From IMG/VR virus record IMGVR_UViG_3300032272_000001, positions 103,273-167,272 of that record: 64,000 nt of DNA. One strand, 5' to 3'. Below, one piece after another: positions 7,015 through 23,861 of this stretch. Each line of letters starts with the position of its first letter. Position 1 is the stretch's first letter. Under the pieces are notes generated by a model. The model made no database searches and had not been told where the DNA came from. It was given only the letters and a program-made list of their open reading frames with translations. The translations under genes and the position numbers were made by a program. This DNA comes from a virus. Lineage: Duplodnaviria; Heunggongvirae; Uroviricota; Caudoviricetes.

Positions 7015-7751
7015 TTAATTACTTTATTTAATTCTTGTAATGTTCTAATAATGATTAAAGTTTCATCACCTAATTTAGTACCACCTCTTGTCCTAGTCCA
7101 ATGTTCAATTGCTTCTGGGACTGTGAAATACCTGCAACCAGCAATGATTCTATCAATACCATCTTTATCAGGTACAAGAATAAATTCATATCTATCTGAT
7201 CTTTTAATTTGTGGAAACGGTTTTGATACTCTTACATCACCAGATACTACAGCATTACCAGATACTAGAGCATTACCATATACTCTAGCATAGCCAAATA
7301 CTTTAGCATTATCATATACTTTTGCATCCCCATATACTCCAGCATTATCACATACTACAGCATTATCACATACTTTAGCATTACCATATACTACAGCATC
7401 ATCAAATACTTCAGCATCACCAAATACTTGAGCATTGCCAGCTACTACAGCATTATCATATACTCTAGCATCACCATATACTAGAGCATCACCAGATACT
7501 TCAGTATCATCATATACTTGAGCATCACCAAATACTTCAGCATCATCATATACTCTTGTATTACCAAATACTCTAGCATCGCCATATACTCTAGCATCGC
7601 CATATACTCTTGCATTACCAAATACTTTAGCATTATCACATACTTTAGCATTAGGTCCAATATAAGCAGTATCTTCTACATATGCAGTATCTGCAACAAG
7701 ACCACCACCATTGGTATGTTTATGAAATCCTGACATTGTGTGTTCCTTCAC
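7011..7751 (-). CDS. Hexapeptide-repeat family paralog (246 aa) with conserved C-terminal domain
   Basis: N-term MSGFHKHTNGGGLVADTAYV, about 25 V-x-[GD]-[ND]-A-x repeats, C-term SKPFPQIKRSDRYEFILVPDKDGIDRIIAGCRYFTVPEAIEHWT. Confidence 0.75.
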   Translation of the reverse strand: MKEHTMSGFHKHTNGGGLVADTAYVEDTAYIGPNAKVCDNAKVFGNARVYGDARVYGDARVFGNTRVYDDAEVFGDAQVYDDTEVSGDALVYGDARVYDNAVVAGNAQVFGDAEVFDDAVVYGNAKVCDNAVVCDNAGVYGDAKVYDNAKVFGYARVYGNALVSGNAVVSGDVRVSKPFPQIKRSDRYEFILVPDKDGIDRIIAGCRYFTVPEAIEHWTRTRGGTKLGDETLIIIRTLQELNKVIK

Positions 7752-8254
7752 TTAATTACTTTATTTAATTCTTGTAATGTTCTAATAATGATTAAAGTCT
7801 CATTGCATAAACTAGTTCCATATCTTGTTTTTGTCCAATGTTCAATTGCTTCTTCGATACTAAAATACCTGCAACCAACAATGATTCTATCAATACCATT
7901 TTTATCTGGCACAAGAATAAATTCATATCTATCTGATCTTTTAATTTGTGGAAATGGTTTTGATACTCTTGCATCACCATATACTAGAGCATTACCAGAT
8001 ACTACAGCATTATCATATACTTTTGCATCACCATATACTTCAGCATCATCATATACTCTTGCATAACCAAATACTTGAGCATTACCAGATACATGAGCAT
8101 TACCATATACGCTAGCATCACCAGACACTTTAGCATAACCAGACACTTTAGCATTAGGTCCAATATAAGCAGTATCTGCAACAGTTGCAGTATCTGCAAC
8201 AAGACCACCACCATTGGAGTGTCTATGAAATCCTGACATATTATTTTCCTTCAC
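7748..8254 (-). CDS. Hexapeptide-repeat family paralog (168 aa)
   Basis: Same N- and C-terminal modules with fewer repeats. Start overlaps the upstream stop. Confidence 0.75.
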   Translation of the reverse strand: MKENNMSGFHRHSNGGGLVADTATVADTAYIGPNAKVSGYAKVSGDASVYGNAHVSGNAQVFGYARVYDDAEVYGDAKVYDNAVVSGNALVYGDARVSKPFPQIKRSDRYEFILVPDKNGIDRIIVGCRYFSIEEAIEHWTKTRYGTSLCNETLIIIRTLQELNKVIK

Positions 8255-8742
8255 TTAATTTCTTTATTTAATTCTTGTAATGTTCTAATAATTTTTAAGG
8301 TTTCGGTTCCTAGTTTAGTTCCGTATCTTGTTTTTGTCCAATGTTCAATTGCTTCTGGGACTGTAAAGTATCTGCAACCAGCAATTATTCTATCAATACC
8401 ATCTTTATCTGGTACAAGAATAAAATCATATCCATCTGATCTTTTAATTTGTGGAAACGGTTTTGATACTTTAACATCACCATATACACTTACATCACCA
8501 GATACTTTAACATGACCAGATACTCTAGCATTACCATATACATGAGCATTACCAGATATTACAGCTTTACCAAATACTTTAGCATAACCAAATACTAGAG
8601 CATTACCATATACTCTTGCATTACCAAATACTTTAGCATAACCAAATACTTTAGCATCTGGTCCAATAAAAGCAGTATCTTCTACATATGCAGTATCTGC
8701 AACAAGACCACCACCATTGATATGTTTATGAAATCCTGACAT
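8251..8742 (-). CDS. Hexapeptide-repeat family paralog (163 aa)
   Basis: Same architecture. Confidence 0.75.
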   Translation of the reverse strand: MSGFHKHINGGGLVADTAYVEDTAFIGPDAKVFGYAKVFGNARVYGNALVFGYAKVFGKAVISGNAHVYGNARVSGHVKVSGDVSVYGDVKVSKPFPQIKRSDGYDFILVPDKDGIDRIIAGCRYFTVPEAIEHWTKTRYGTKLGTETLKIIRTLQELNKEIK

Positions 8743-8914: not shown

Positions 8915-9293
8915 GACTACTCCAAACATAATCAGAGACAATAAATCCATAAAATTCAAAATCATCACCAACTTCTTTATATTCATTTATTGTTGCAATA
9001 CCATATGGAATTATTGCAAATTGACATGGCATATCATATAATGACATAAATTCTTTTCCATTAAAATTATCCATAAAAACAAATTCCCCAATCAGATCAT
9101 AATTATGATCCAACCTAAGATTTGTTACTGTTGCACAACGAGTATCATATTGACTAATTGTTTCGAAATAGATAAACAAATTATTATTAATAATCTTATC
9201 ATAAACATCAAAACCAAGAAAATGGTTCTTTCGATAGATTAAACCACCAGTTGTGGAAGATGGTTTATTCAACTCAATTTTAAATTTAGTCAT
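8907..9293 (-). CDS. hypothetical protein
   Basis: 128 aa. Confidence 0.5.
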   Translation of the reverse strand: MTKFKIELNKPSSTTGGLIYRKNHFLGFDVYDKIINNNLFIYFETISQYDTRCATVTNLRLDHNYDLIGEFVFMDNFNGKEFMSLYDMPCQFAIIPYGIATINEYKEVGDDFEFYGFIVSDYVWSSHE

Positions 9294-9480
9294 ATTATTT
9301 CTCCATTAATGTGGTTGATTTGAGTAGGAGTCGAACCTACAATAATCTCATTACGTCGCGCTGTTTGAGATACAGTAGGTTTCACCATGAGCGCGGAAAC
9401 TATTGATTTCGCAATAATCCCATCCATATCGGCTTAGCCCACACTGCTATTTACCAATTTCAGCATCAAATCATATTTAA

Positions 9481-10236
9481 TTATTTTTCCTTAAAATGTG
9501 CTTCTACCATATCCAACCATAATAGAGATTGTTGAGATAATTTAGATCCATCTCCACGCCTATGATTAGTCCAATATTTCCTAGCTTCTAAAATATTTTT
9601 TACTACACAACCAGCATATATTTTAATACCATCATCATTTTTCTGTGCAATATGCTGATAACCGTCTGTTCGTGTCATAATAGGACCAATATTTGTACGA
9701 TAATTACCATCCAAATCATTAAATTTTGTTGATTTTAAATCAGCATTATTAAAATTAGCACTACTTAAATAACAGAAGTTAAATACACAATTCCTCAGAT
9801 CACAATCACTAAAATTAGTTTTGTACATTCCAACATCTATGAATCTACTATCCGAAAAAGAACTACCAGTAAAATCAATAAAATCTAAACACTTATACTT
9901 AAATTTACAATTAAAAAAAATACATTTTTGTGAATTCTGATCAAAAATAATATCAGACAAATCTTTATTAACAAATTCAAGCTGTTGACCTTTAGTATTA
10001 TCATCAAGCCATAGTAGATGTTTTTTGTATTTCTTATCGTATTTCTTCTGAGTAATCTTTTTCATGTTATAATCCTTGGTAACTTCGTAGTAATTTCGTA
10101 GTAACTGAGTAATCTTTTTCATGTTATAATCCTTGGTAATTTCGTAGTAACTTCGTAGTAACTTCGTAGTAACTTCGTAGTAACTTCGTATGTGTTGTAT
10201 TAAACCTAGTGTATATGGATATGCGCGTGTGGTCAA
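9481..10236 (-). CDS. Pentapeptide-repeat protein fused to the same C-terminal domain as the hexapeptide family; its N-terminal region carries internal tandem repeats
   Basis: Central A(D/N)(L/F)xx repeats (CKFKY KCLDF IDFTG SSFSD SRFID ... NADLK STKFN). C-term RTDGYQHIAQKNDDGIKIYAGCVV..EARKYWTNHRRGDGSKL aligns with the family's C-terminal domain. N-terminal start is uncertain. Confidence 0.6.
   Translation of the reverse strand: MTTRAYPYTLGLIQHIRSYYEVTTKLLRSYYEITKDYNMKKITQLLRNYYEVTKDYNMKKITQKKYDKKYKKHLLWLDDNTKGQQLEFVNKDLSDIIFDQNSQKCIFFNCKFKYKCLDFIDFTGSSFSDSRFIDVGMYKTNFSDCDLRNCVFNFCYLSSANFNNADLKSTKFNDLDGNYRTNIGPIMTRTDGYQHIAQKNDDGIKIYAGCVVKNILEARKYWTNHRRGDGSKLSQQSLLWLDMVEAHFKEK
10046..10200. 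repeat. Tandem DNA repeats (about 56-bp duplication plus 10-bp unit cttcgtagta x5) inside the 5' end of the pentapeptide-protein gene
   Basis: gtaatctttttcatgttataatccttggtaa occurs twice; acttcgtagta is iterated. Confidence 0.7.
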
Positions 10237-10237
10237 G

Positions 10238-10327
10238 AAAAAAAAATAAAAAAAAATTACATAGAGACAAGGCTTCTATAGCAGTAGTATAAAAAATAAA
10301 AAAAAATTACATAGAGACAAGGCTTCT
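10238..10327. repeat. Direct repeat (A-rich, about 38 bp x2: aaaaaaataaaaaaaaattacatagagacaaggcttct)
   Basis: Two copies at 10238..10277 and 10291..10327. Confidence 0.65.
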
Positions 10328-10442
10328 TCAATAACATCCCTAGCATAGTTGTATATAAAAGGGGGGGTGTCTTTTTTGCAACACTGTTACCTAAATGTTA
10401 CGTTACCCAAATGCCACAGTTGCTTATATACAACATAGTGTG

Positions 10443-10512
10443 GTGTGGCAATTAAGCCACACCTTTTTGTATTACCAAATACTCTTGCATGTGTGTGACA
10501 ATTAAGTCACAC
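10443..10512. promoter_or_regulatory. Pair of near-identical hairpins sharing the loop AATTAA (gtgtggc-aattaa-gccacac and gtgtgac-aattaa-gtcacac)
   Basis: Stems of 7 bp at 10443..10462 and 10493..10512 in a non-coding gap. The loop resembles the gcAATTgc core of the terminators at 3844 and 33808. Confidence 0.45.
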
Positions 10513-10669
10513 GTATTAAGCCCGGAGAATCCGTCTAATTTCGGCCTTAATTTCTTTATTGCTTGGCTCGCGGCCAAGCCTTGCCGCCAGTTTGTTCCAA
10601 ATTGTTTCGGGGTTATTATTCGTAACCGTGAAATTGACTTGCATTGGATTCATTCCTTATAGTGAGGGT

Positions 10670-10981
10670 TTAAGACAAAGTGATATATTTCCAATCTATC
10701 GCTTTTGATATGTCAGTATCATAGCCAAATATTTCATTTTTGAGGAAATTGAATACTTTATCCTTTTCCCCAATAATATGGTTATAAGTGACTCTTGATG
10801 TTTTTTCAGTTCCCCAATATTCATGTGTCACACGAACATAAAAACCAGCTTTTAGTAGCTTTTTAGTAAAGCGCTCGGCAATCGGCGCAAAAATGTCATA
10901 GCTTGAAAGGTGGATCGTGGTTTCAATCATCAAAGAAGAAGACATAACAGAAGCTCGCTTGTTTGTGTTTCGTCTAACCAT
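10670..10981 (-). CDS. hypothetical early protein
   Basis: 103 aa; preceded by a minus-strand promoter module at 10985..11010. Confidence 0.5.
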   Translation of the reverse strand: MVRRNTNKRASVMSSSLMIETTIHLSSYDIFAPIAERFTKKLLKAGFYVRVTHEYWGTEKTSRVTYNHIIGEKDKVFNFLKNEIFGYDTDISKAIDWKYITLS

Positions 10982-10984
10982 GAA

Positions 10985-11010
10985 TATAAACGAATCTAGC
11001 CTAGAGTCAA
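10985..11010 (-). promoter_or_regulatory. Early sigma70-like promoter module on the minus strand (TTGACT-N16-TTATAT)
   Basis: Reverse complement of agtcaa at 11005..11010 with an AT-rich -10. Confidence 0.45.
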
Positions 11011-11180
11011 CTACACAACCACTGTTTAAAGGTTTTTATTGAAAAATTATCATCGCCCCACACACAATCAATGAACAGTGTGTAGCGATCCCATAGCTTA
11101 TCAGGTGCATCTTGGTGCATGTTCCTTTGGCCTGCTATAAATCGCCTTCTGGCGGCTTCTGTATGGGCTGGAATAGTCAT
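11007..11180 (-). CDS. hypothetical small protein (57 aa, missing from the ORF track because it is under 60 aa)
   Basis: Manual translation MTIPAHTEAARRRFIAGQRNMHQDAPDKLWDRYTLFIDCVWGDDNFSIKTFKQWLCS. Confidence 0.3.
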   Translation of the reverse strand: MTIPAHTEAARRRFIAGQRNMHQDAPDKLWDRYTLFIDCVWGDDNFSIKTFKQWLCS

Positions 11181-11234
11181 ATTAAACCTTTAGAATGATG
11201 AGAGTGTGGTTGTTTGTTACTAATGCCGATAACC

Positions 11235-11408
11235 CTAGAGTCCGTTTTTGGCTGATAGATCGCTGGCAGCCTTGCGGAGCGCCATAGCAGTTAATTGACA
11301 ATCAATCCCTTCCATAATGCCGTTGTCGTCGTGTAATATCAATCTATTGGCTTTGCGTTCATATATTGCGGCCAACTCACGGAGTTTATTCACGGCTTGT
11401 AGAGTCAT
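11235..11408 (-). CDS. hypothetical small protein (57 aa, under the 60-aa track cutoff)
   Basis: Manual translation MTLQAVNKLRELAAIYERKANRLILHDDNGIMEGIDCQLTAMALRKAASDLSAKNGL. Confidence 0.3.
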   Translation of the reverse strand: MTLQAVNKLRELAAIYERKANRLILHDDNGIMEGIDCQLTAMALRKAASDLSAKNGL

Positions 11409-11421
11409 GATGGTTTAACCT

Positions 11422-11718
11422 TTAGGTTTTGGTGCGCAAGCGAAATTGTGGGCGTGTGTCTTGATATCGCCAACCAGCCATTACCCCGCGCGCATGAAAC
11501 ATATAATAATTGTAGCCAGTATCCTTTATTTTGCTGGCAATCTCACGGCCCACCGCTATTTTGTCGTCTACAAAAACAATTTCAATGGTTGATTCCATCC
11601 AATCGCCAGGGTGCATCAAATATATTCCACCCAAATTTGGAGTCTCTGTTTCAAATTGTTCATAATATTGGGCAAAGGTGCAAATACCGTCAATCGCGTC
11701 ACTGTGTGAATATTTCAT
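11422..11718 (-). CDS. hypothetical protein
   Basis: 98 aa ORF. The antisense ORF 11448..11735 is rejected. Confidence 0.45.
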   Translation of the reverse strand: MKYSHSDAIDGICTFAQYYEQFETETPNLGGIYLMHPGDWMESTIEIVFVDDKIAVGREIASKIKDTGYNYYMFHARGVMAGWRYQDTRPQFRLRTKT

Positions 11719-11720
11719 TG

Positions 11721-11969
11721 TTATTCGCCTTTTAACCCTTCCAGCCTTCTGGCGTCATACTCACACGCAATAAAATCCCGCGCGGCAGTCAAAGAAATAC
11801 AGCCCTGTCTTTTACAATAAATTGTATATGCTTCGAAAACATTATCATACGGGCCAAAAATATGGCCAGCAACGCTATTGTGTGCTGAAACAACAATGTA
11901 ATGATTCGAATCGGTTGTATCCTTATAGATAATAAAGGATTTAGTATCAGACTGTAAGGCGGTTTTCAT
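11721..11969 (-). CDS. hypothetical protein
   Basis: 82 aa; minus-strand promoter at 12005..12033 upstream. Confidence 0.5.
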   Translation of the reverse strand: MKTALQSDTKSFIIYKDTTDSNHYIVVSAHNSVAGHIFGPYDNVFEAYTIYCKRQGCISLTAARDFIACEYDARRLEGLKGE

Positions 11970-12004
11970 AGTCTAAACTTTCGTTGCTTGTTTCGTCTAT
12001 CCCT

Positions 12005-12033
12005 GATACTAAAGGAATCTAGGCTAGAGTCAA
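12005..12033 (-). promoter_or_regulatory. Early promoter module, minus strand (TTGACTctagcctagattccttTAGTATC)
   Basis: Shares its core with the modules at 13055, 13424, 13717, 14056 and 14373. Confidence 0.5.
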
Positions 12034-12465
12034 CTAGAATCGACCAGGCGCGGGCGGTAGAGGAGTCCATTCTGTGATATTATCATCACCATATTGCTCG
12101 GATACAAGTTTTTTGATCCCTTCCCTATTGACACATCTACCAATAGCCCAAAATCCGGGCGGCTTTCCTGGATGGCCATCGCTATCAATCCACACAAGAA
12201 TATTCTTATATGAATAAGCCGCTTCTAGTGAGGCGTTAATCATGTCATTATTGTGTTTAATACGGTTAACCGCATGAGTGATATTCCCAGAAGAGCCGCC
12301 AATGATGTTATTTCCGTTCGAATCATACAGCAAGAAACCACCGTAGCATTTTTCAGCCCATCCAATAAACTCACCATCACAATATACAACAATGTGCGTA
12401 TCAAAACGCTTTTTCGGAAGTCTTAGCACTGAATATTCTGAATTTTCTGGTTTTTCTTTAGTCAT
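12034..12465 (-). CDS. hypothetical protein
   Basis: 143 aa. Confidence 0.5.
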   Translation of the reverse strand: MTKEKPENSEYSVLRLPKKRFDTHIVVYCDGEFIGWAEKCYGGFLLYDSNGNNIIGGSSGNITHAVNRIKHNNDMINASLEAAYSYKNILVWIDSDGHPGKPPGFWAIGRCVNREGIKKLVSEQYGDDNITEWTPLPPAPGRF

Positions 12466-12508
12466 AATCTCAACACTTTCGCTTGTTTCTGTTTATGCTG
12501 GCCGCGAT

Positions 12509-13018
12509 TTACCGACAGCTATAGATTAGGCGATCGCCCCCAATCGTTGTTTCGATATAATCACAACTCAAATCAGCCGCAATCGCGTCATAATCGATAT
12601 AATTGGCTAAATGTTCTGGAATATCGCCGAATAGACCATTATCAACCAATTCCTCTGCAAGATCGCGCATACTAGAGCAATGATAGATATCAACTTCAAA
12701 ATCTGATTCAGGATCAACCGAATCAGCATCAAAAGGATAGGAACACTCGCCAACCGCAATAATAAAGATGGTTTTCTCATGATCGGACCATGATACCTCA
12801 CAGTCAATATATTTTTCGATATTGGCCTGATTAATGCCCCATGCTTCCGACAATTCACAATCAATGGTTTCGCCGTCAATAAAATCAATTTCAAATTCTT
12901 CCACCTTGTCGCCATGGCTATTCCGCGCTTTGGACGCCTTTTCTGTGTATTCTTCGAACGTTTCGAAGTAGAATCCAGTGGCAGAAATATCATAAGGATT
13001 TGCGAAAAATTTGGACAT
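12509..13018 (-). CDS. Acidic protein, putative ArdA-like antirestriction (DNA-mimic) protein
   Basis: 169 aa and very acidic. C-terminal NYIDYDAIAADLSCDYIETTIGGDRLIY resembles the ArdA C-terminal motif (nY.DyeA.arDL...) as I recall it. Not verified by search. Confidence 0.4.
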   Translation of the reverse strand: MSKFFANPYDISATGFYFETFEEYTEKASKARNSHGDKVEEFEIDFIDGETIDCELSEAWGINQANIEKYIDCEVSWSDHEKTIFIIAVGECSYPFDADSVDPESDFEVDIYHCSSMRDLAEELVDNGLFGDIPEHLANYIDYDAIAADLSCDYIETTIGGDRLIYSCR

Positions 13019-13054
13019 ATCAGAAGCTCTCTGTGTGTGTTTCGTCTGATTTTG

Positions 13055-13082
13055 ATACTAAAGGAATCTAAGGGAGAGTCAA
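13055..13082 (-). promoter_or_regulatory. Early promoter module, minus strand, driving 12509..13018
   Basis: TTGACTctcccttagattccttTAGTAT read on the minus strand. Confidence 0.5.
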
Positions 13083-13083
13083 A

Positions 13084-13389
13084 TTATTTCTTAGCCATTC
13101 GTGCAGCATTTTGACACACTACGTTATTATATATTTCTGCTACTTTAGTTTCTGCTATCATATTATCTGCATCGCCGCGTAATGCCGCTTCAAGGGCCAG
13201 TTTGTAATGCTTTTCCGCAATGTCACTCAATCGCAGATTATTTGATGTTGTGACTATATTTTGCGCTTCGGCAAAATTGTCATAAGTGCCATAGTATAGC
13301 GCGGAGTAACATCCCATAATGTAGTAAACTTCGATTTCTGAATTATTATCAACATAAACAATTTCAGAGAATTTGACCGGGTTGGACAT
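13084..13389 (-). CDS. hypothetical protein
   Basis: 101 aa. Confidence 0.5.
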   Translation of the reverse strand: MSNPVKFSEIVYVDNNSEIEVYYIMGCYSALYYGTYDNFAEAQNIVTTSNNLRLSDIAEKHYKLALEAALRGDADNMIAETKVAEIYNNVVCQNAARMAKK

Positions 13390-13423
13390 ATCAGAAGCTC
13401 TCTTGTGTGTTTCGTTAAGACTG

Positions 13424-13451
13424 ATACTAAAGAAATTGAATGGAAAGTCAA
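13424..13451 (-). promoter_or_regulatory. Early promoter module, minus strand
   Basis: TTGACTttccattcaatttcttTAGTAT. Confidence 0.5.
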
Positions 13452-13462
13452 TCCCTAATTTG

Positions 13463-13693
13463 TTAGCAATGCGCCAGAACCAACGGATCTAGTGTTTTGA
13501 TGTTTATCAATTCACCCTCGATTCCGCGCTCGATATAAGTACCCGATTTGACCGGCTTGGCCATAATTCGCCATGAATTATCATATTGAGCATTCAAAAA
13601 TTTGTGCATGGCGTCACTAGATTTGAATGCACGCACCTTAACCCTATACTTAAAACCGTTGCCAGTTTTAACATTTTTCCGAATTGAGAACAT
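13463..13693 (-). CDS. hypothetical basic protein
   Basis: 76 aa. Confidence 0.45.
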   Translation of the reverse strand: MFSIRKNVKTGNGFKYRVKVRAFKSSDAMHKFLNAQYDNSWRIMAKPVKSGTYIERGIEGELINIKTLDPLVLAHC

Positions 13694-13716
13694 TTTATTT
13701 CCTTCCGTTAAGGCAG

Positions 13717-13744
13717 ATACTAAGGGAATCTAATGGAGAGTCAA
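13717..13744 (-). promoter_or_regulatory. Early promoter module, minus strand
   Basis: TTGACTctccattagattcccttAGTAT. Confidence 0.5.
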
Positions 13745-14022
13745 GCTCTATTTTCGTTGTGGCGTACTGCCGCATCTAATGCCTCTGCATATTCGCCATA
13801 ATAATTATAACAATGGCCAGAATCAAGGCCAAAGACACACCATTCTTTAAACGAATCATCATATTCAACATAAACGGATTCTTTGATGCCACGTGAAGAA
13901 TGTTCGACTGTAGGTCCAGGTCCAAAATACGCCTTATTAGACACTGTAACATTGCCTAGCCCTCTAACCTTTCTATGCACTCTAGCATTACCGCGAACTA
14001 TGGCAGTGTTATATATTGGCAT
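13741..14022 (-). CDS. hypothetical protein
   Basis: 93 aa. Confidence 0.5.
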   Translation of the reverse strand: MPIYNTAIVRGNARVHRKVRGLGNVTVSNKAYFGPGPTVEHSSRGIKESVYVEYDDSFKEWCVFGLDSGHCYNYYGEYAEALDAAVRHNENRA

Positions 14023-14055
14023 TGGATGTTCCTTAATCGAGTTGCGTTAAGACTG

Positions 14056-14083
14056 ATACTAAAGAAATCTAATGGAGAGTCAA
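14056..14083 (-). promoter_or_regulatory. Early promoter module, minus strand
   Basis: TTGACTctccattagatttctttAGTAT. Confidence 0.5.
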
Positions 14084-14086
14084 TCT

Positions 14087-14341
14087 CTATTCTACCTGAA
14101 ACGCTATTGTTACAGTGTCGCATGATCCAATACCATAGTCCCACGCGTCATGATATCGCATGAATCCTCTGCCCTTATCATCGACCGGGCAAAGGCATCG
14201 AAACATGCCATATTCAGCGGATTCAGCTTGATAAAATGCCTCAATTGCATCTATATCATGCTCTTCGAGACCACTATAATCATCATTGATCAATGCACAA
14301 AGCCAATGTGCTGGCAAAACGTATTCAACAATTCTCATCAA
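14087..14341 (-). CDS. hypothetical acidic protein
   Basis: 84 aa. Confidence 0.5.
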   Translation of the reverse strand: MMRIVEYVLPAHWLCALINDDYSGLEEHDIDAIEAFYQAESAEYGMFRCLCPVDDKGRGFMRYHDAWDYGIGSCDTVTIAFQVE

Positions 14342-14372
14342 ACTAGCCTCAATTGAGTTGCGTTAGAGCCAA

Positions 14373-14399
14373 ATATAAAGAGACGCTGGAACGAGTCAA
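14373..14399 (-). promoter_or_regulatory. Early promoter module, minus strand (TTGACTcgttccagcgtctctTTATAT)
   Basis: First promoter of the leftward early block; it lies at the edge of the divergent region. Confidence 0.45.
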
Positions 14400-14950
14400 G
14401 TCACAAGATTGTGATTAGACAAAAGGACTCAGTTAGTATCTCATTGGTGTAACTATTTTGCCACAAAGGGGTTTGATGCAGAAAAACAACACTATTGTAT
14501 ATATGTCACAGTTGCGTCTATGCAACTGTGTTGTATTATTATCACTGTGTTGCATAATGGTAGCACTGTTGCATTTGTGCGTCTATAGTGATATATAGGA
14601 CACAGAGACATAATGGACACACTATGTTGCATTTATGTCACAGTTGCGTCTATGTTACAGTGTGATATATAGGCCACAGAGACACAAAAATGTCACAGAG
14701 ACACAAAAATGTCATAGAGACACGTGGCCTCATATTACGTTTTTTCGATTATTCTACATTCCCCAAAATATCTGATATTTTATCTAATATAAGATTTTAA
14801 TTTTTCATACTATATTATTCCACTATATGGACATTACTATAATTCTAGTACAATAGTAATATACTATGTAATTGAGTTACAATAGAGCTAAAATCTCAAT
14901 TTCAAACAAAAATAGTTTGAAACTACAGATTAGTAGGTATATAACCACGC
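14400..14950. repeat. Non-coding divergent control region rich in palindromes and tandem motifs (cacagttgcgtctatgcaactgtg; cacagagacacaaaaatgt x3), followed by an AT-rich stretch. It separates the leftward and rightward early blocks. Candidate origin or regulatory hub
   Basis: No ORF of 60 aa or more. Contains the perfect inverted repeat cacagttgc..gcaactgtg at about 14505..14530 and a degenerate copy at about 14640..14665; tandem gtcacagagacacaaaaat at 14682..14730; more than 80% AT over 14750..14940. Confidence 0.5.
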
Positions 14951-15267
14951 TAGTTACTACACAATAACTTTTCAATAAGATCAATGATAAATTGAGGCTC
15001 ATTTGATGTAATATCACCACGATTAACTCCCATAACATAACTCAATTTATAGTTACCCGAATTATTAAACATAAGCACCATACTATCATTCCAAGCAAAA
15101 TAAAATGAGCCATAATTATCTAATTCAAGAATAGGATGTTTTGTTGTATTAATACCATGATCAATCATTTTTAACATTGCATTAAGAGAATTATCATTAA
15201 TACTAATATTGTTTTTTTGTGCTAATGTTATAATATCTTTAATAGACGTATCAAAATCAATAATCAT
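14950..15267 (-). CDS. hypothetical protein; paralog of 15288..15614 and 20705..21025
   Basis: Shared pattern ..SL.a....G.L...W.d...........; 105 aa. Confidence 0.5.
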   Translation of the reverse strand: MIIDFDTSIKDIITLAQKNNISINDNSLNAMLKMIDHGINTTKHPILELDNYGSFYFAWNDSMVLMFNNSGNYKLSYVMGVNRGDITSNEPQFIIDLIEKLLCSN

Positions 15268-15287
15268 AATGTCTTTCCTCTGTTTTA

Positions 15288-15614
15288 TTATATTGCAGAT
15301 TCTGCTTTCACTACTGTTAATTTTTGCAATAATGGCTCGATTGTGGTAATAATGAAATCAAGATCACTTGTTGTAATATCACCATAGCAATCCTTAAAAT
15401 CAAAGGATAAATTAAATTCTTTATAATCTACTTGATCTACATCAGAAAATACAATAATGATGGAATCATCATCCCAATTTGCAGATAATACACCATCATC
15501 ATTCCTATTTACTATAAAATCATTCTCTGAATCAAATTTCCGAAGAAGAAATTTTGACAGTGCACTAAGAGACGATTCATTGATAATGTCGCCTTTTTCA
15601 AAGATTTTACACAT
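15288..15614 (-). CDS. hypothetical protein; paralog of 14950..15267
   Basis: 108 aa. Confidence 0.5.
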   Translation of the reverse strand: MCKIFEKGDIINESSLSALSKFLLRKFDSENDFIVNRNDDGVLSANWDDDSIIIVFSDVDQVDYKEFNLSFDFKDCYGDITTSDLDFIITTIEPLLQKLTVVKAESAI

Positions 15615-15689
15615 TGTATGACGCCTTCCGAGGTTGCTGATCTGCTATCCCTAGCAACTATGAAATGTTGTGTCAAGTGAAAATAATTG

Positions 15690-15717
15690 TTGACATCACT
15701 CTAGAATCCACTATGAT
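15690..15717 (+). promoter_or_regulatory. Early promoter module (TTGACA-N16-TATGAT), first of a repeated series on the + strand
   Basis: ttgacatcactctagaatccactatgat followed by a conserved leader (ccagatatcagataacaaagggaacataatATG). Confidence 0.55.
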
Positions 15718-15747
15718 CCAGATATCAGATAACAAAGGGAACATAAT

Positions 15748-16168
15748 ATGTCAGAATTTCATAAACACTCCAATGGTGGTGGATTAGTAGAGTCTACTGC
15801 AACAGTATCTGATACTGCTTTTATTGGACCTAATGTTATAGTATGTGATAATGCAAGAGTATCTGGTACTGCTCTAGTATGTGATAATGCAAGAGTATCT
15901 GATGATGTTCTAGTATTTGGTGATGCAAGAGTATCTGATGATATTAAAGTATATGATAATGCTATAGTATCTGATGATGTTCTAGTATTTGGTGATGCAA
16001 GAGTATCTGGTCATGCAAAAGTATTTGGTGATGCTAAAGTAGCTGGCTATGCTATAGTATGATAATGCAAGAGTATCTATTGGACAGAAACGAGATATGG
16101 AACTAAATTAGGTGATGAAACACTTGAAATTATTTCTATGCTACAGAAATTAAAGTCAATTATGGATT
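15748..16168 (+). pseudogene. Decayed hexapeptide-family copy: intact N-terminus and 104 codons, then in-frame TGA TAA, then the last 26 codons of the C-terminal domain in the same frame (an internal deletion)
   Basis: gtatgataatgc here versus gtatgtgataatgc in intact copies (2-bp loss). The segment encoding SKPFP...EAIEH is missing and the sequence resumes at YWTETRYGTKLGDETLEIISMLQKLKSIMD*. Confidence 0.6.
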
Positions 16169-16194
16169 GACATCCCTCTAGAATCCACTATGAT
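16167..16194 (+). promoter_or_regulatory. Early promoter module
   Basis: ttgacatccctctagaatccactatgat. Confidence 0.55.
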
Positions 16195-16225
16195 ACAAGA
16201 TATCAGATAACAAAAGGAACATAAT

Positions 16226-16897
16226 ATGACAAAATTTCATAGACACTCCAATGGTGGTGGTCTTGTTGCAGATACTGCAAGAGTATCTGATACTGCTTTT
16301 ATTGGACCTAATGCAAGAGTATTTGGTAATGCTGAAGTATATGGTAATGCTATAGTATTTGGTAATGCTGTAATATCTGGTGATGCTGTAGTATATGGTA
16401 ATGCTAAAGTGTCTGGTAATGCTAGAGTATACAACAATGCTAAAGTATCTGATGATGCTAGAGTATACAGCAATGCTAAAGTATATGGTAATGCTAGAGT
16501 ATGTGATAATGCTGTAGTATGTGATAATGCTATAGTATCTGGTGATGCAAGAGTATATGGTGATGCAAGAGTATTTGATAATGCTGTAGTATGTGATAAT
16601 GCTTCAGTATCTGATGATGCTATAGTATGTGATCATGCAAGAGTATTTGGTGATGCAAAAGTATTTGGTGATGCTCTAGTATCAAAACCATTTCCAAAAA
16701 TCACCAGATCAGATAGATATGATTTTATTCTTGTGCCAGATAAAGATGGAGTCGATAGAATCATTGCTGGTTGCAGGTATTTTAGTATCGAAGAAGCAAT
16801 TGAACATTGGACAGAAACAAGAGGTGGAACTAAACTAGGAACCGAAACCTTAAAAATTATTGATATGTTACAAGAATTAAAGTCAATTATTGATTGA
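16226..16897 (+). CDS. Hexapeptide-repeat family paralog (223 aa)
   Basis: Conserved N/C modules and about 21 repeats. Confidence 0.75.
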   Translation: MTKFHRHSNGGGLVADTARVSDTAFIGPNARVFGNAEVYGNAIVFGNAVISGDAVVYGNAKVSGNARVYNNAKVSDDARVYSNAKVYGNARVCDNAVVCDNAIVSGDARVYGDARVFDNAVVCDNASVSDDAIVCDHARVFGDAKVFGDALVSKPFPKITRSDRYDFILVPDKDGVDRIIAGCRYFSIEEAIEHWTETRGGTKLGTETLKIIDMLQELKSIID

Positions 16898-16921
16898 CAA
16901 CACCATAGATTGGTGTATGAT
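16894..16921 (+). promoter_or_regulatory. Early promoter module (overlaps the stop codon of the upstream gene)
   Basis: ttgacaacaccatagattggtgtatgat. Confidence 0.55.
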
Positions 16922-16951
16922 CCAGATATCAGATAACAAAAGGAACATAAT

Positions 16952-17533
16952 ATGTCAGAATTTCATAGACACTCCAATGGTGGTGGATTAGTAGAGTCTA
17001 CTGCTAGTGTTGCTGATACTGCTTATATTGGACCTAATGCTGTAGTAGCTGGTAATGCTGTAGTAGAGGGCAATGCTATAGTAGATGGCAATGCTAAAGT
17101 ATTTGATAATGCTAGAGTAACTGGTCATGCTCTAGTATCTGGTAATGCTCAAATATTTGGTAATGCTCAATTATATGGTTATGCTATGGTATATGGTGAT
17201 GCTAAAGTATTTGATAAGGTTATAGTATCTGGTACTGCAAGAGTATTTGGTGATGCTGAAGTATATGATAATGCTGTAGTATCTGGTGATGCTGTAGTAT
17301 CTGGTGATGCTCTAGTATCAAAACCGTTTCCAAAAATTACTAGATCAGATGGATATGATTTTATTCTTGTACCAGATAAAGATGGTATTGATGTAATAAT
17401 TGCTGGTTGCAGATACTTTAGTATCGAAGAAGCAATTGAACATTGGACAGAAACAAGATATGGAACTAAATTAGGTGATGAAACTATGTTGATTATTGAA
17501 ACATTGCAGAAATTAAAGTCAATTATGGATTGA
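16952..17533 (+). CDS. Hexapeptide-repeat family paralog (193 aa)
   Basis: Same architecture. Confidence 0.75.
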   Translation: MSEFHRHSNGGGLVESTASVADTAYIGPNAVVAGNAVVEGNAIVDGNAKVFDNARVTGHALVSGNAQIFGNAQLYGYAMVYGDAKVFDKVIVSGTARVFGDAEVYDNAVVSGDAVVSGDALVSKPFPKITRSDGYDFILVPDKDGIDVIIAGCRYFSIEEAIEHWTETRYGTKLGDETMLIIETLQKLKSIMD

Positions 17534-17557
17534 CAACACCATAGATTGCTGTATGAT
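17530..17557 (+). promoter_or_regulatory. Early promoter module
   Basis: ttgacaacaccatagattgctgtatgat. Confidence 0.55.
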
Positions 17558-17585
17558 CCAGATATAGAAACAAAGGGAAAATGAT

Positions 17586-18221
17586 ATGTCAGGATTTCAT
17601 AGACATCCAAATGGTGGTGGTCTAGTAGAGTCTACTGCATATGTAGAAGATACTGCTTTTATTGGACCAGATGCTAGAGTAACTGGTGATGCTGAAGTAA
17701 CTGGTAATGCTCAAGTATTTGGTAATGCAAGAGTATCTGGTAATGCTAAAGTATTTGATAAGGTTATGGTATATGGTCATGCTTTAGTATCTGGTAATGC
17801 TATGGTATATGGTCATGCTTTAGTATCTGGTAATGCTATGATATCTGATAATGCTGAAGTATTTGATGATGCTAGAGTATATGGCTATGCTCATGTATTT
17901 GGTAATGCTCAAATATTTGGTAATGCTGTAATATTTGGTAATGTAAAAGTAGCTGGTAAAGCTGTAATATCTGGTAATGCAAGAGTATATGGTAATGCTG
18001 TAGTATCAAAACCATTTCCACGCATTCCTAGATCAGATGGATATGATTTTATTCTTGTACCTGATAAAGATGGTATTGATAGAATCATTGCTGGATGTAG
18101 ATATTTCACAGTCCCAGAAGCAATTGAACATTGGACAGAAACGAGATATGGAACCAAATTAGGAAGCGAGACTATGTTGATTATTGAAACATTGCAGAAA
18201 TTAAAGTCAATTATTGATTGA
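17586..18221 (+). CDS. Hexapeptide-repeat family paralog (211 aa)
   Basis: Same architecture. Confidence 0.75.
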   Translation: MSGFHRHPNGGGLVESTAYVEDTAFIGPDARVTGDAEVTGNAQVFGNARVSGNAKVFDKVMVYGHALVSGNAMVYGHALVSGNAMISDNAEVFDDARVYGYAHVFGNAQIFGNAVIFGNVKVAGKAVISGNARVYGNAVVSKPFPRIPRSDGYDFILVPDKDGIDRIIAGCRYFTVPEAIEHWTETRYGTKLGSETMLIIETLQKLKSIID

Positions 18222-18275
18222 CAACAACATAGAATCCACTATGATCAAGATATCAGATAACAAAGGGAACATACC

Positions 18276-18515
18276 ATGGATTTTGATGCTTTAAGAGAAT
18301 TAAAATCGGATTTGAATCATATTGTAACAAGATATGATCGTAAACAAGAAAATAAAAAATGTTATAATCATTATGCGCTTGGCATATATATGATTGCGGT
18401 TGATAATGCGATTAATGATATTGATAATGGTGCGAAGACAATTGATGCCATTAACAATAGATTCAATGACAGATTGCTTGCATTTATTTTGAAGAATTTA
18501 GATATAAAGGATTGA
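18276..18515 (+). CDS. hypothetical small protein (unrelated insert within the array)
   Basis: 79 aa; promoter module at 18228..18255. Confidence 0.5.
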   Translation: MDFDALRELKSDLNHIVTRYDRKQENKKCYNHYALGIYMIAVDNAINDIDNGAKTIDAINNRFNDRLLAFILKNLDIKD

Positions 18516-18521
18516 CATAAT

Positions 18522-19103
18522 ATGTCAGAATTTCATAAACATCCTAATGGTGGTGGATTAGTAGAGTCTACTGCAACAGTATCTGATACTGCTTATATTG
18601 GTCCTAATGCTGTAGTAGCTGGTAATGCTGCGGTACTTGGTAATGCTATAGTATCTAATAATGCTATAGTATCTAATAATGCAAGAGTATCTAATAATGC
18701 TCAAGTATATGGCGATGCTAAAGTGTCTGGTAATGCTCAAGTATTTGATAATGCTGAAGTATATGGTGATGCTCAAGTATTTGATAAGGTTATGGTATAT
18801 GGTACTGCTAGAGTATATGATAATGCTGTAGTATCTGGTAAAGCTGTAATATCTGGTGATGCTGTAGTATCTGGTGATGCTGTAGTATCAAAACCGTTTC
18901 CAAAAATTACTAGATCAGATGGATATGATTTTATTATTGTACCTGATTTATCTGGTAGTGATAGAATCATTGCTGGCTGTAGATATTTTAGTATCGAAGA
19001 AGCAATTGAACATTGGACAGAAACAAGATATGGAACTAAACTAGGCGATGAAACACTTGAAATTATTTCTATGCTACAGAAATTAAAGTCAATTATGGAT
19101 TGA
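18522..19103 (+). CDS. Hexapeptide-repeat family paralog (193 aa)
   Basis: Only a truncated upstream module survives here (ttgacataatATG). Confidence 0.75.
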   Translation: MSEFHKHPNGGGLVESTATVSDTAYIGPNAVVAGNAAVLGNAIVSNNAIVSNNARVSNNAQVYGDAKVSGNAQVFDNAEVYGDAQVFDKVMVYGTARVYDNAVVSGKAVISGDAVVSGDAVVSKPFPKITRSDGYDFIIVPDLSGSDRIIAGCRYFSIEEAIEHWTETRYGTKLGDETLEIISMLQKLKSIMD

Positions 19104-19158
19104 CATACCTCTAGAATCCACTATGATCAAGATATCAGATAACAAAGGAATAACTCAA

Positions 19159-19566
19159 ATGAAAAAATCAGATTTTGTTAGTGGTTTTATTGAGGCCGCA
19201 CTATGGTCATCTACATATGAACATGATGATTGCGAGGATTGTGTGGAAGGTTGTTGCAATCCCAATTGTGATGATGGCAAACATGAATTGTCACATAAAG
19301 CACGAAAAATGTTGACTGAGATTGCAGAAACATTTTTCGATAAGCACAATGCTCTATTCACTAATGATAATCTCATTCGACCATTAGTATGTTCTGTGTC
19401 CGAATACGCTGGCCATGATTTTTGGTTAACCAGCCAAGGACATGGTTGCGGGTTTTGGGATGGCGATTGGAATGAACCGGCTTCAACCATACTGACAGAG
19501 GCTAGCAAATGTGTAGGAGAAAAGCATTTTTATGTCAATTCTAATGGCGAATTTGATATAGAATAG
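19159..19566 (+). CDS. hypothetical Cys-rich protein (start at internal Met; the track ORF begins at 19123 inside the promoter)
   Basis: CEDCVEGCCNPNCDDGKHELSH motif; RBS aaaggaata. Confidence 0.5.
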   Translation: MKKSDFVSGFIEAALWSSTYEHDDCEDCVEGCCNPNCDDGKHELSHKARKMLTEIAETFFDKHNALFTNDNLIRPLVCSVSEYAGHDFWLTSQGHGCGFWDGDWNEPASTILTEASKCVGEKHFYVNSNGEFDIE

Positions 19567-19622
19567 TTGACATACATATAGAATCTGATATGATCCAGAT
19601 ATAGAAACAAAGGGAACATAAT

Positions 19623-20420
19623 ATGTCAGAATTTCATAAACATATCAATGGTGGTGGATTAGTAGAGTCTACTGCAACAGTTGCAGTATCTGCTTATATT
19701 GGACCTAATGCTAAAGTATTTGGTAATGCTAAAGTGTTTGGTTATGCTCTAGTATGTGATTATGCTGTAATATCTGGTGATGCTGTAATATCTGGTTATG
19801 CTAAAGTATATGATAATGCTGTAATATCTGGTGATGCTGTAGTATGTGATAATGCTAGAGTATCTGGCTATGCTCAAATATTTGGTAATGCTCAAGTATA
19901 TGGTAATGCTCTAGCATTTGATAAGGTTATGGTATATGGTGATGCAAGAGTATTTGGTAATGCTCAAGTATATGATGATGCTAGAGTATACAGCAATGCT
20001 AGAGTATCTGGTGATGCAAGAGTATTTGGTGATGCTGTAGTATTTGATAATGCTCTAGTATTTGATAAGGTTATGGTATATGGTACTGCAAGAGTATATG
20101 GTGATGCAAAAGTATATGATAATGCTATAGTAACTGGTAATGCTATAGTAACTGGTAATGCTATAGTATATGGCAATGTTCAAGTATCTGGTGATGCTAG
20201 AGTATCAAAACCATTTCCACAAATTAAAAGATCAGATAGATATGATTTCATTCTTGTGCCAGATAAAAATGGTACTGAAATAATAATTGCTGGTTGCAGA
20301 TACTTTACAGTTCCAGAAGCTATTGAACATTGGACAGAAACAAGAGGTGGAACCAAATTAGGTGATGAGACTATGCTGATTATCGAAACATTGCAGAAAT
20401 TAAAGTCAATTATTGATTGA
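19623..20420 (+). CDS. Hexapeptide-repeat family paralog (265 aa, the longest)
   Basis: About 28 repeats; promoter module at 19567..19594. Confidence 0.75.
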   Translation: MSEFHKHINGGGLVESTATVAVSAYIGPNAKVFGNAKVFGYALVCDYAVISGDAVISGYAKVYDNAVISGDAVVCDNARVSGYAQIFGNAQVYGNALAFDKVMVYGDARVFGNAQVYDDARVYSNARVSGDARVFGDAVVFDNALVFDKVMVYGTARVYGDAKVYDNAIVTGNAIVTGNAIVYGNVQVSGDARVSKPFPQIKRSDRYDFILVPDKNGTEIIIAGCRYFTVPEAIEHWTETRGGTKLGDETMLIIETLQKLKSIID

Positions 20421-20472
20421 CATCACTCTAGAATCTGATATAATCAAGATATAGAAACAAAGGGAACGTACA

Positions 20473-20673
20473 ATGTCTAATATGTCATACTGCCGTTGGG
20501 AAAATACCTCAAAAGATCTAATGGATTGTGTTGAAGATTTTGGAGAATTTGTTGAAGATGGCGGAACACTTGATGAATATCTTGAAAAGCTATCATCAAG
20601 CGAACGGCGCGCATTTAATAAGATCATAAACGAGTGTAATTTGTTTATGTCACTATACGAAGATTCTGAATAA
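20473..20673 (+). CDS. hypothetical small acidic protein
   Basis: 66 aa; promoter module at about 20417. Confidence 0.5.
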   Translation: MSNMSYCRWENTSKDLMDCVEDFGEFVEDGGTLDEYLEKLSSSERRAFNKIINECNLFMSLYEDSE

Positions 20674-20704
20674 ATATCGCCGCGTAACTATTCAAGGGGA
20701 TGTA

Positions 20705-21025
20705 ATGACTTGTATCTTGAAACCAATGATAAGAGATTTGAAAATACATGCAAAATACAATGGTATTAAGATCAATGAAACATCACTGAAAGGAGCGATT
20801 GCCTTTCTTGAGAAGAATGAATTGATTCATGCTCCAACATTATTTGTTTCTGATAATGGCGTTTTGACTTTACAGTGGGATAATAAGCAATTATATTTCA
20901 CAGTAGAGTTTAAGGATGATCAATTCACATATGATTGTCATGTTTATAATAGCAACATCAAAGGAACCGGAACTACTAGACGACTAGCAGATATCACGAA
21001 AATAGTCAAAACAATAAGGATATAA
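20705..21025 (+). CDS. hypothetical protein, third member of the small paralog family (14950, 15288)
   Basis: INETSLKGAIAFL...DNGVLTLQWDNKQLYF is similar to the two minus-strand paralogs. Confidence 0.5.
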   Translation: MTCILKPMIRDLKIHAKYNGIKINETSLKGAIAFLEKNELIHAPTLFVSDNGVLTLQWDNKQLYFTVEFKDDQFTYDCHVYNSNIKGTGTTRRLADITKIVKTIRI

Positions 21026-21249
21026 TGATGTTAGAGAAACAATATGTTACACATATTGATGAAGTTTCGTATAGGATAAGAGCAAATCCAGATGCGCTGC
21101 CGAGCCATACTGCGCAGTATGGCATTGTTCTGGAATATAAGAATGCTGATCAACAGGAATGGAATATCGGAATTTTCATTGAACCAGAAGCTATCAGTGA
21201 TATCATTGAAGCAATGGTTCTATTAATTGGCGATAAGAAAGAAAACTGA
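21025..21249 (+). CDS. hypothetical protein
   Basis: 74 aa; its ATG overlaps the upstream stop. Confidence 0.45.
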   Translation: MMLEKQYVTHIDEVSYRIRANPDALPSHTAQYGIVLEYKNADQQEWNIGIFIEPEAISDIIEAMVLLIGDKKEN

Positions 21250-21306
21250 TTGACATACCACTAGAATCTGCTATGATTAGATCATCGACAACAAAGGAAC
21301 ATTATT

Positions 21307-21648
21307 ATGAAGCCCATTAGTAAAGTTATCATGCTTTCAGATGAACGTAATGGTATCGCAGCACCGAAAAAAGCAATGGGTTGTATTGATTGGTCGGATA
21401 TCAATATCGTGAATCTTAAAGAAACACTTACCAAAGATATTCTTATTGTTTCTACGTTTAATATTAATTGCGATGGTGCTGATTCGGAATCGTATTGGGA
21501 ATCATGGCAGTATATTTGCGAGAATGCCGTTCTGGAATATAAACCAACCGGACAAAGATTCACTGTATATCAGGATGGTGATGTTTGGTTGATTGATCAG
21601 ACCGCAGTAGTTGGTATTGATCACGAATTGTGGGAATCTGACGATTAA
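21307..21648 (+). CDS. hypothetical protein
   Basis: 113 aa; promoter module at about 21247. Confidence 0.5.
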   Translation: MKPISKVIMLSDERNGIAAPKKAMGCIDWSDINIVNLKETLTKDILIVSTFNINCDGADSESYWESWQYICENAVLEYKPTGQRFTVYQDGDVWLIDQTAVVGIDHELWESDD

Positions 21649-21663
21649 ACCGAAAGGAATGAT

Positions 21664-21912
21664 GTGATGTTTGCAGTAATTCAATATGGATATAATATTT
21701 GTGGCGTTGGAGAAGATGAAGATTCTGCCTTAGAAATGGCTGCGGAATATTGTGATTTGCCAGATAACATAAAAACAATGCCAATGACAGATGGTGATAT
21801 TATTATCGTTGGAGCAACCAAAGAATTGTGTGATCATGTTATAAAATGTGGTGGTGATGTGAAATACACTATTAGTGGTGGTGTTGCTGATATTTGTTTG
21901 ACGCCAGAATAG
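21664..21912 (+). CDS. hypothetical protein
   Basis: 82 aa. Confidence 0.45.
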   Translation: MMFAVIQYGYNICGVGEDEDSALEMAAEYCDLPDNIKTMPMTDGDIIIVGATKELCDHVIKCGGDVKYTISGGVADICLTPE

Positions 21913-21952
21913 AATCTGCTATAATCAGAATATAGAAACAGAAAGAAACACA

Positions 21953-22375: not shown

Positions 22376-22443
22376 AGTAATTATTGATTGACAACACCAT
22401 AGATTGTTATATGATAAAGATATAGAAACAAAAGGAACATGAT

Positions 22444-23025: not shown

Positions 23026-23080
23026 CAACACCATAGATTGCTGTATGATACAAGATATCAGATAACAAAGGAATGATACA

Positions 23081-23806: not shown

Positions 23807-23861
23807 CAACACCATAGATTGCTGTATGATACAAGATATCAAACAACAGAGGAATGATGTA

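Follow-up and report, generated by a model that had tools for sequence, protein, structure and literature searches.

A non-coding cluster of repeated motifs beside easily melted DNA in the early region of a distant T4-like phage

The largest non-coding gap, apart from the tRNA region, in a 64-kb stretch of a tailed-phage genome (IMG/VR record IMGVR_UViG_3300032272_000001, positions 103,273 to 167,272; the whole stretch is called the window, and all coordinates are counted from its first letter) is a spacer of 608 bp at 14342-14949. The window was assigned to a distant T4-like myophage, and the spacer is a non-coding cluster of repeated motifs beside meltable DNA, lying near, and not at, a switch of the transcribed strand. 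As the most likely single reading we tentatively propose an early replication origin of the T4 kind, that is, an origin-like array of protein-binding sites, because the layout matches known features of T4 origins. The short motif cores look conserved and could be recognition sites; protein binding, transcription from weak modules and any replication activity are inferred.

In the mechanism that we envisage, the region would act in cis as an array of sites to which a sequence-specific factor binds. This array would comprise three degenerate units of ~66 bp and three 19-bp iterons, with motifs that share the core G-Y-CACA-S, and nucleation at the repeats would involve a protein, a short transcript or both. 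Such a transcript may start at weak promoter-like modules at 14569-14597 and 14644-14671, and melting of the AT-rich DNA alongside (14735-14891) would follow, on the pattern of oriF and oriG or of oriE in T4.

Repeats, meltable DNA and strand geography of the spacer

A preliminary description of the region had noted ~550 bp free of open reading frames (ORFs), which proved correct: the gap contains no ORF above 46 aa, and the gene calls on an identical Logan contig likewise leave 14342-14949 empty. Small protein genes inside the spacer were considered and rejected, the ORFs of up to 46 aa being Cys-rich nonsense without ribosome-binding sites. A perfect 9+6+9 palindrome, CACAGTTGC-GTCTAT-GCAACTGTG, lies at 14507-14530, and a second copy is found at 14639-14662, in which the left arm and the central six nucleotides are exact and the right arm, GTTACAGTG, is complementary at 6/9 positions; both had been reported before, at about 14505..14530 and 14640..14665. 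The identity between the two places covers 21 nt (14502-14522 and 14634-14654). A single perfect palindrome with 9-bp arms is ordinary in this genome (~38 distinct ones in the window, mostly terminators). The repetition as a whole is non-random, with 41 pairs of shared 9-mers in 14483-14735 versus 0.57 in dinucleotide shuffles, and 0/1000 shuffles reaching 41.

The repeats resolve into three degenerate units of ~66 nt on the plus strand. Unit M0 (14495-14563) contains the perfect palindrome followed by the T-rich tail TTGTATTATTAT, a combination that is terminator-like on the plus strand (RNA hairpin of -15.9 kcal/mol, z=-3.8). Unit M1 (14564-14619) carries CACTGTTGCAT, TGCGTCTAT and a 26-nt module in the form GTGATATATAGGACACAGAGACATAA (14588-14613); it resembles unit M2 minus both palindrome arms, and a single-sequence profile of M1 matches M2 at E=2.5e-4. 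Unit M2 (14620-14690) carries the degenerate palindrome, with a weaker hairpin of -9.5 kcal/mol, TGCGTCTAT and the second 26-nt module (14662-14687). Altogether there are three copies of TGCGTCTAT, at distances of 65 and 67 nt, and two of the 26-nt module GTGATATATAGGNCACAGAGACA (14588 and 14662). The unit tail is amplified as 19-nt iterons, for which the program TRF reports 2.6 head-to-tail copies of CACAGAGACACAAAAATGT (plus strand, 19-nt period, 96% match) at 14675-14723; the tandem array of the preliminary description thus exists, ~7 nt to the left of the place given there (14682..14730) and with 2.6 copies instead of three. The extended form of the iteron is AAAAAT-KW-CAYAGAGACA, and the array is flanked by the inverted repeat GGCCAC (14672-14677) / GTGGCC (14724-14729).

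Two weak promoter-like modules detected by regular expression fall within these units, namely TTGCAT-N17-(TGa)TATATA in M1 (14569-14597) and TTGCGT-N16-(TGa)TATATA in M2 (14644-14671). Both are on the plus strand, have an upstream TG and aim at the AT-rich DNA; any transcript starting from them would be non-coding, as there is no ORF downstream. The easily melted segment itself extends over 14735-14891, with a GC content of about 0.22. Within it, 14767-14866 has the lowest stability of any 100-bp stretch in the window when nearest-neighbour free energy is computed, by a small margin; in a simplified single-bubble supercoiling model these 100 bp are also the dominant opening site of their own 5-kb domain, with p about 0.7. 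Sites as easily opened recur roughly every 5 kb. The preliminary description had put the AT content above 80% over ~190 bp, which is too high, since 14740-14930 is 78.0% AT; the neighbouring coding DNA is nearly as AT-rich, with a GC content of 0.21-0.23 at 15150-15300.

The AT-rich segment is followed by a minus-strand hairpin with a U-rich tail (14892-14931, fold of -16 kcal/mol, z=-3.6), probably the intrinsic terminator of a leftward operon at 15614-14950. A terminator-like hairpin is therefore found on each side of the region, one per strand and both facing inward, and the palindrome hairpin and the minus-strand terminator may shield the central 350 bp from transcription coming in from both sides. 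The two genes of the operon, 14950-15267 and 15288-15614 (105 and 108 aa), are acidic ORFans and paralogues of each other, on the minus strand and with good ribosome-binding sites; they run leftward, so that the rightward block which had been said to begin after 14950 is not there. Their products have isoelectric points of 4.1-4.6 and share 32% identity, and a homologue of the 105-aa neighbour is absent among 5.8 billion proteins. The spacer thus lies between the place where this two-gene operon ends and the promoter that comes first in the next leftward block, TTGACT-N16-TATATT (14372-14399, minus strand; found by promoter scan, regular expression and cassette listing), which is the first of the higher-GC cassette described below and drives a DUF6926 gene (14338-14087). 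Divergence occurs farther right, in a promoter zone at 15615-15747 with a rightward promoter at 15690-15717 and a leftward TTGACA at 15675-15670. The cumulative GC-skew minimum of the window, at about 15.65-15.75 kb, coincides with this zone, and the spacer is 0.7-1.3 kb away from both the transcription switch and the skew minimum.

A second spacer, the higher-GC block and the early promoters

The motifs of the spacer recur in the second-largest spacer of the window, here called igA (10237-10669). Five motif patterns occur 18 times in the 64 kb, 15 times in the spacer under study and three times in igA, and 9/14 sites of the core G[TC]CACA[GC] fall within these two spacers. A profile of the palindrome (nhmmer) recovers three copies in the whole window, at 14507-14530, at 14639-14662 and in igA. 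The half-site CACAGTTGC, whose recurrence had been placed at about 10405, was confirmed at 10415; when the palindrome was searched elsewhere in the window, as had been suggested, this half-site was found in igA as part of an imperfect palindrome and nowhere else. In random sequence of the size of igA, CACWGTTGC is expected with p=0.0033 and CAYAGAGACA with p=0.0019, and both cores together were seen in 0/20000 shuffles (the product of the single frequencies is about 6e-6).

On the plus strand, igA carries two copies of an A-tract plus iteron, AAAAATTACATAGAGACA (10236-10327; copies at 10252-10269 and 10302-10319), both contained in a 37-nt perfect direct repeat (10241-10277 / 10291-10327). These iteron units lie directly upstream, at 15 nt, of a leftward promoter-like sequence, TTGACC-N17-TACACT (10236-10208). 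Farther on, at 10403-10463 (plus strand; folds and nhmmer), the imperfect palindrome CCACAGTTGC-TTATATA-CAACATAGTGTG shows the same half-site, and it is adjoined by a strong hairpin, GGTGTGGC-AATTAA-GCCACACC, followed by T5, which together make a strong plus-strand terminator with no plus-strand ORF upstream. This hairpin is one of twin palindromes of the form GTGTGRC-AATTAA-GYCACAC, the other being GTGTGAC-AATTAA-GTCACAC. A fragment of ~25 nt of a beta-solenoid gene also lies in igA (10465-10491). An 11-nt tandem repeat, GTAACTTCGTA, is present in about nine copies at 10048-10190, where a 57-nt duplication takes in the ribosome-binding site and the ATG of a pentapeptide-repeat gene; these repeats are evenly spaced beside long A-tracts (10238-10257 and 10288-10307). 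The sequence TAACTTCGTA also matches 10 nt of a loxP arm, probably by chance.

The two spacers bracket a block, 10330-14735, with a GC content of 0.40 versus 0.33 for the genome, and its compositional borders, at about 10330 and about 14735, are at the iterons; the repeat-rich half of our spacer (14342-14735) has a GC content of 0.39. The 18-nt core AAAAAT-KW-CAYAGAGACA is shared, in direct orientation, exactly at both borders, and each border has, just to its inside, a palindrome that contains the half-site CACAGTTGC. The block encodes a homologue of the anti-restriction protein ArdA (12509-13018, minus strand), whose closest relatives, 60-65% identical, belong to integrative conjugative elements (ICEs) of marine Rhodobacteraceae (Yoonia, Phaeobacter, Sulfitobacter); this affinity may indicate that the host is a marine alphaproteobacterium and that the gene was captured from ICEs. 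Within igA, a 45-aa ORF (10516-10653, minus strand) has homologues 68-79% identical in P22-like podophage contigs with a GC content of 0.56-0.60. The protein carries an invariant TxTNNNP...LGREP and a strand-helix-helix sequence pattern with a G-R-E-P-T turn, and its AlphaFold model (pLDDT 85) has two helices and an unstructured N-terminus. Searches of Pfam, PDB and folds gave no significant match, and an assignment to the ribbon-helix-helix proteins was for this reason not established and is only a lead. Besides ardA and the 45-aa gene, respectively, we found no gene common to the block and these ICEs or podophages, and the motifs of the spacer were not found in either; nor does 10670-14341 encode an integrase or transposase domain. 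The podophage contigs with the 45-aa homologue have dense ATGGTCA / TGACCAT repeats of their own, direct and inverted and some with an 8-nt period, in what is the divergent early control region of those contigs (L216, 8780-9200; L219, 1640-1890).

Early genes of this phage are organized in two clear families of cassettes with one promoter per gene. The leftward L-type, TTGACTCTCCATTAGATTCCTTTAGTAT, is present in seven copies (11010-14399, minus strand), among which the promoter at 14372-14399 is a weaker member (nhmmer hit of the L profile at 14402-14328, E=3.6e-13), and the rightward R-type, TTGACAnnnCnnTAGAATCnnnTATGAT, in 13 copies by exact pattern and 18 by profile (15690-30560, plus strand). 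A short leader is conserved in each cassette, much as in the promoter early stem-loop (PeSL) elements, and almost every small early gene has its own. GANTC, the alphaproteobacterial CcrM methylation motif, is found in the L-type -35 (GACTC) and in most promoter spacers (GATTC or GAATC). The L and R profiles recover all known cassettes (E down to 1e-20) and nothing in 14403-14949, which rules out that the repeats of the spacer are degenerate copies of the phage's own promoter cassettes; a late promoter was not found in the spacer either.

Replication origin and competing explanations

Three of T4's more active origins, namely oriE, oriF and oriG, lie near transcription switches, and the five T4 origins have no common motif (PMC3016281). 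OriF and oriG, which are R-loop origins, need only a promoter and an AT-rich downstream unwinding element, and the spacer resembles them in having an AT-rich meltable segment just downstream of promoter-like elements that are followed by no ORF, as well as in lying near a switch of the transcribed strand and of nucleotide skew (PMC3016281). It differs in that T4 uses middle promoters that depend on MotA and have a canonical -10, whereas the hexamers here are weak and non-canonical, and in that 60-130 bp of repeats separate them from the AT-rich DNA. OriE consists of an early promoter and 12-nt direct repeats, set at even intervals, of unproven role (PMC3016281), and our spacer is like it in that direct repeats are clustered in an early region near a transcription switch, the function of the repeats being not established in either. 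The even 12-nt spacing of T4 is, however, replaced here by a 19-nt array of 2.6 copies and three degenerate units of ~66 nt, a gene like repEA or repEB was not found beside the region (flanking ORFs compared with PHROG, Pfam and NCBIfam), and the 11-nt array at 10079-10190 is closer to the oriE repeats than the spacer itself.

Iteron origins of the lambda type and of plasmids have about four 19-bp iterons and an AT-rich region, and are bound by O or Rep. Here too, 19-bp iterons with A-tracts lie directly beside AT-rich DNA (from 14735), and two copies have an internal TGTC-N5-GACA dyad; yet there are only 2.6 tandem copies, no overlapping or adjoining initiator gene and no DnaA boxes. The PeSL cassettes, promoter and stem-loop, in the hyperplastic regions of T4-like phages (PMC2839356, PMC4122927) offer another comparison. 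Our spacer too is in a hyperplastic early region, in which each small gene has a conserved promoter cassette, and it borders on a gene block that was apparently swapped, but it matches neither cassette profile of this phage and is about ten times longer than a PeSL. The region can be placed in a class that is well known in phages, that of intergenic control regions made of repeats plus AT-rich DNA, and its sequence is unique.

Several observations weigh against an origin. The preliminary description had called the region a divergent control region, and this label is wrong, since both flanking gene sets run leftward and divergence takes place at 15615-15747. By the yardstick of that same description, the GC-skew minimum (computed on the 64-kb window) falls just outside the region; it is in any case not independent evidence, because it coincides with the transcription strand switch, and transcription direction alone accounts for it. 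No gene for an initiator, a Rep or RepE-like protein or another recognisable DNA-binding protein lies within about 5 kb, so that the early DNA-binding protein that had been looked for is missing there, and the DnaA box TTATCCACA is absent, at up to one mismatch, from both 14342-14949 and 10237-10669. The plus-strand promoter-like hexamers fail a sigma-70 scan, lack the conserved -7 T and match neither of the phage's own promoter profiles. In the supercoiling model, 9870-9977 usually opens instead when domains of 12-22 kb are considered, and the AT-rich segment is only 78% AT, close to its right-hand neighbours and partly a terminator. At its other border, too, the higher-GC cassette is marked by the motifs, and a role connected with the cassette fits equally well. 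Finally, no related sequence was found in the phage, plasmid, IMG/VR, metagenome and GTDB collections. The architecture listed in the preliminary description exists and is non-random, and its idea of a replication origin or master regulatory region is plausible as a hypothesis.

The searches for related sequences were of several kinds. Megablast and distant blastn against phage and plasmid collections returned no similar DNA, and four motif scans of IMG/VR nothing relevant, the one match (L076) being inside a coding sequence and due to chance. Among the metagenome scans, one was empty and the one with the promoter consensus returned only single-copy random matches. Neighbouring genes led no further: the DUF6926 homologues are on non-syntenic contigs without the motifs, the beta-solenoid homologues are not from close relatives, and the ArdA homologues are in ICEs that share no other gene, hence no synteny.

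An upstream transcriptional control array, with operator or activator sites and possibly UP-like A-tracts that tune leftward early units at both cassette borders, seems to us possible, if doubtful. The units concerned would be those of the promoter at 14399-14372 (the ardA-containing block) and of the promoter at 10236-10208 (the pentapeptide-repeat gene), and either a host protein or a small protein of the phage could act as the factor. The same motifs do occur at two places, each upstream of leftward units: in igA the A-tract and iteron units are 15 nt upstream of TTGACC-N17-TACACT, and in our spacer the repeats are 100-330 bp upstream of the first L-type promoter. Moreover, the 9+6+9 palindrome and the twin palindromes of igA have the geometry of dimer sites, and igA encodes the conserved 45-aa protein with its strand-helix-helix pattern. 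Early genes of T4-like phages, however, are normally constitutive sigma-70 units; six other L-type promoters work without such arrays, and a recognisable transcription factor did not turn up, the 45-aa protein having no Pfam, PDB or fold match and the podophage contigs with its homologues being devoid of these motifs. We consider it rather unlikely that 14342-14735 came together with the block 10330-14735 as a recombination junction or scar, in which the border motifs would be functionless leftovers of an exchange, or of tandem duplication and decay. T4-like hyperplastic regions do shuffle by recombination at repeated cassettes (PMC2839356, PMC4122927). In favour of a scar, the compositional boundaries are exactly at the iterons, the border-proximal iteron CATAGAGACA (14713) and the igA copies have a T variant in common, indels are eroding the units (M1 versus M2), a piece of a beta-solenoid gene is present in igA, and ardA and the 45-aa gene are nearest to high-GC alphaproteobacterial ICEs and podophages. 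Yet the short cores are exact in four contexts while their flanks differ, which suggests selection, and phage genomes rarely keep 600 bp of junk; besides, the spacer is unlike the phage's own promoter cassettes, the block has no integrase or transposase, and the motif copies are direct, not inverted.

Quite unlikely, in our view, is a small non-coding RNA locus, from which a purine-rich RNA of ~70 nt would start at about 14678, after the TGaTATATA box, carry the three 19-nt repeats inside a GGCCAC/GUGGCC stem and end at a weak hairpin with U6 (14722-14746); a similar second RNA in igA would end at the strong terminator at 10442-10468. Antisense control, a sponge or an anti-defence decoy are possible roles, given that the neighbourhood is rich in anti-defence genes (ArdA, Tad6, pentapeptide-repeat protein). 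In favour of such RNAs, the plus-strand promoter-like boxes have no downstream ORF, igA has a strong plus-strand intrinsic terminator without a plus-strand ORF upstream, and the plus strand of 14480-14760 folds better than shuffles (z=-3.7), but this score is accounted for by inverted repeats at the DNA level, and the proposed 77-nt RNA folds no better than shuffles (z=-1.0). The promoter boxes are also non-canonical, the 3' hairpin has only two G-C pairs, and with Rfam 15 no hit in 9000-17000 had an E below 0.39 or reached the gathering threshold. Type III antitoxin RNAs have a ToxI repeat of roughly 36 nt, longer than the 19-nt period here, and there is no adjacent toxin gene. Nor is the palindrome a CRISPR repeat in any of 185,579 GTDB species genomes: its pattern occurs there at 14 single-site loci and in no array, for a chance expectation that we estimate at roughly 9-17, and the idea of a CRISPR-repeat mimic was accordingly rejected. 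We give little credence to a further scenario, in which the spacers 10237-10669 and 14342-14949 are matched cis sites, serving recombination and control, of a mobile anti-defence cassette (10330-14735) of T4-like phages, and in which the cassette-encoded 45-aa protein might recognise the matched border sites. Between an origin, a regulatory array, a scar and a small RNA, the available data do not discriminate.

Two other candidates were discarded. A plasmid leading-region promoter for single-stranded DNA (Frpo), or an oriT, captured together with ardA is unsupported, because there is no similarity upstream of the ICE ardA genes, because the single-stranded fold of the spacer is unremarkable (z=-2.4, no single long hairpin), and because T4-like phages inject double-stranded DNA. 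Transposon ends of the Tn7 or Mu kind do not fit, as the iterons at 10252, 10302, 14686 and 14705 are all on the plus strand and there is no transposase.

Phage context and significance

The assignment to the T4-like myophages places the spacer in a window that carries gp32 (2246-3169) and, at 37-64 kb, baseplate and tail genes (gp6-, gp5-, gp2- and gp48/53-like), the structural genes being preceded by T4-type late promoters, TATAAATA. The best phage matches of the gp6 homologue, 35% identical, are in Caulobacter phage Cr30, Sinorhizobium phage phiM12 and Pelagibacter phage HTVC008M, and at the nucleotide level the window has no match among 50,697 phage records. The source contig spans 176 kb, and the locus was seen in one other copy, the Logan contig, which is 5.4 kb long and 100% identical. 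GANTC is neither avoided nor enriched in the window (193 observed versus 192 expected).

Two early blocks made of small genes occupy 4-33 kb and encode ArdA, Tad6, the pentapeptide-repeat protein and at least 12 YdcK beta-solenoid paralogues. The latter, of the YdcK-type beta-solenoid / hexapeptide-repeat family, fill both blocks (7011-8742, minus strand, and 15748-31252, plus strand), and their 18-nt coding periodicity dominates the repeat statistics of the window. A Tad6-like Thoeris inhibitor domain (E=7e-37) is encoded at 4045-4731 (minus strand), and the pentapeptide-repeat protein, a possible DNA mimic, at 9481-10124 (minus strand); as these two genes share an early block, the early locus can be viewed as an anti-defence island. 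Beyond the early blocks, a 1047-aa ORF (33838-36981, minus strand) has no hit in Pfam or PHROG, and tblastn against 50,697 phage genomes gave no match.

So far the evidence is only architectural, and the practical value of the spacer is that of a well-delimited target for experiments. If it marks the borders of an anti-restriction cassette that was swapped, it would reveal the way in which such cassettes are exchanged, and if the two spacers are a matched pair of sites, they would represent a new mechanism by which genes for defence evasion move between unrelated phages. The origins of T4 itself are still poorly defined, with the iterons of oriE having no assigned role, and in distant T4-like phages of marine alphaproteobacteria origins are essentially unknown. 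If the spacer is an origin, it would provide, for a lineage without cultured relatives in the databases searched, an element that is compact and can be tested.

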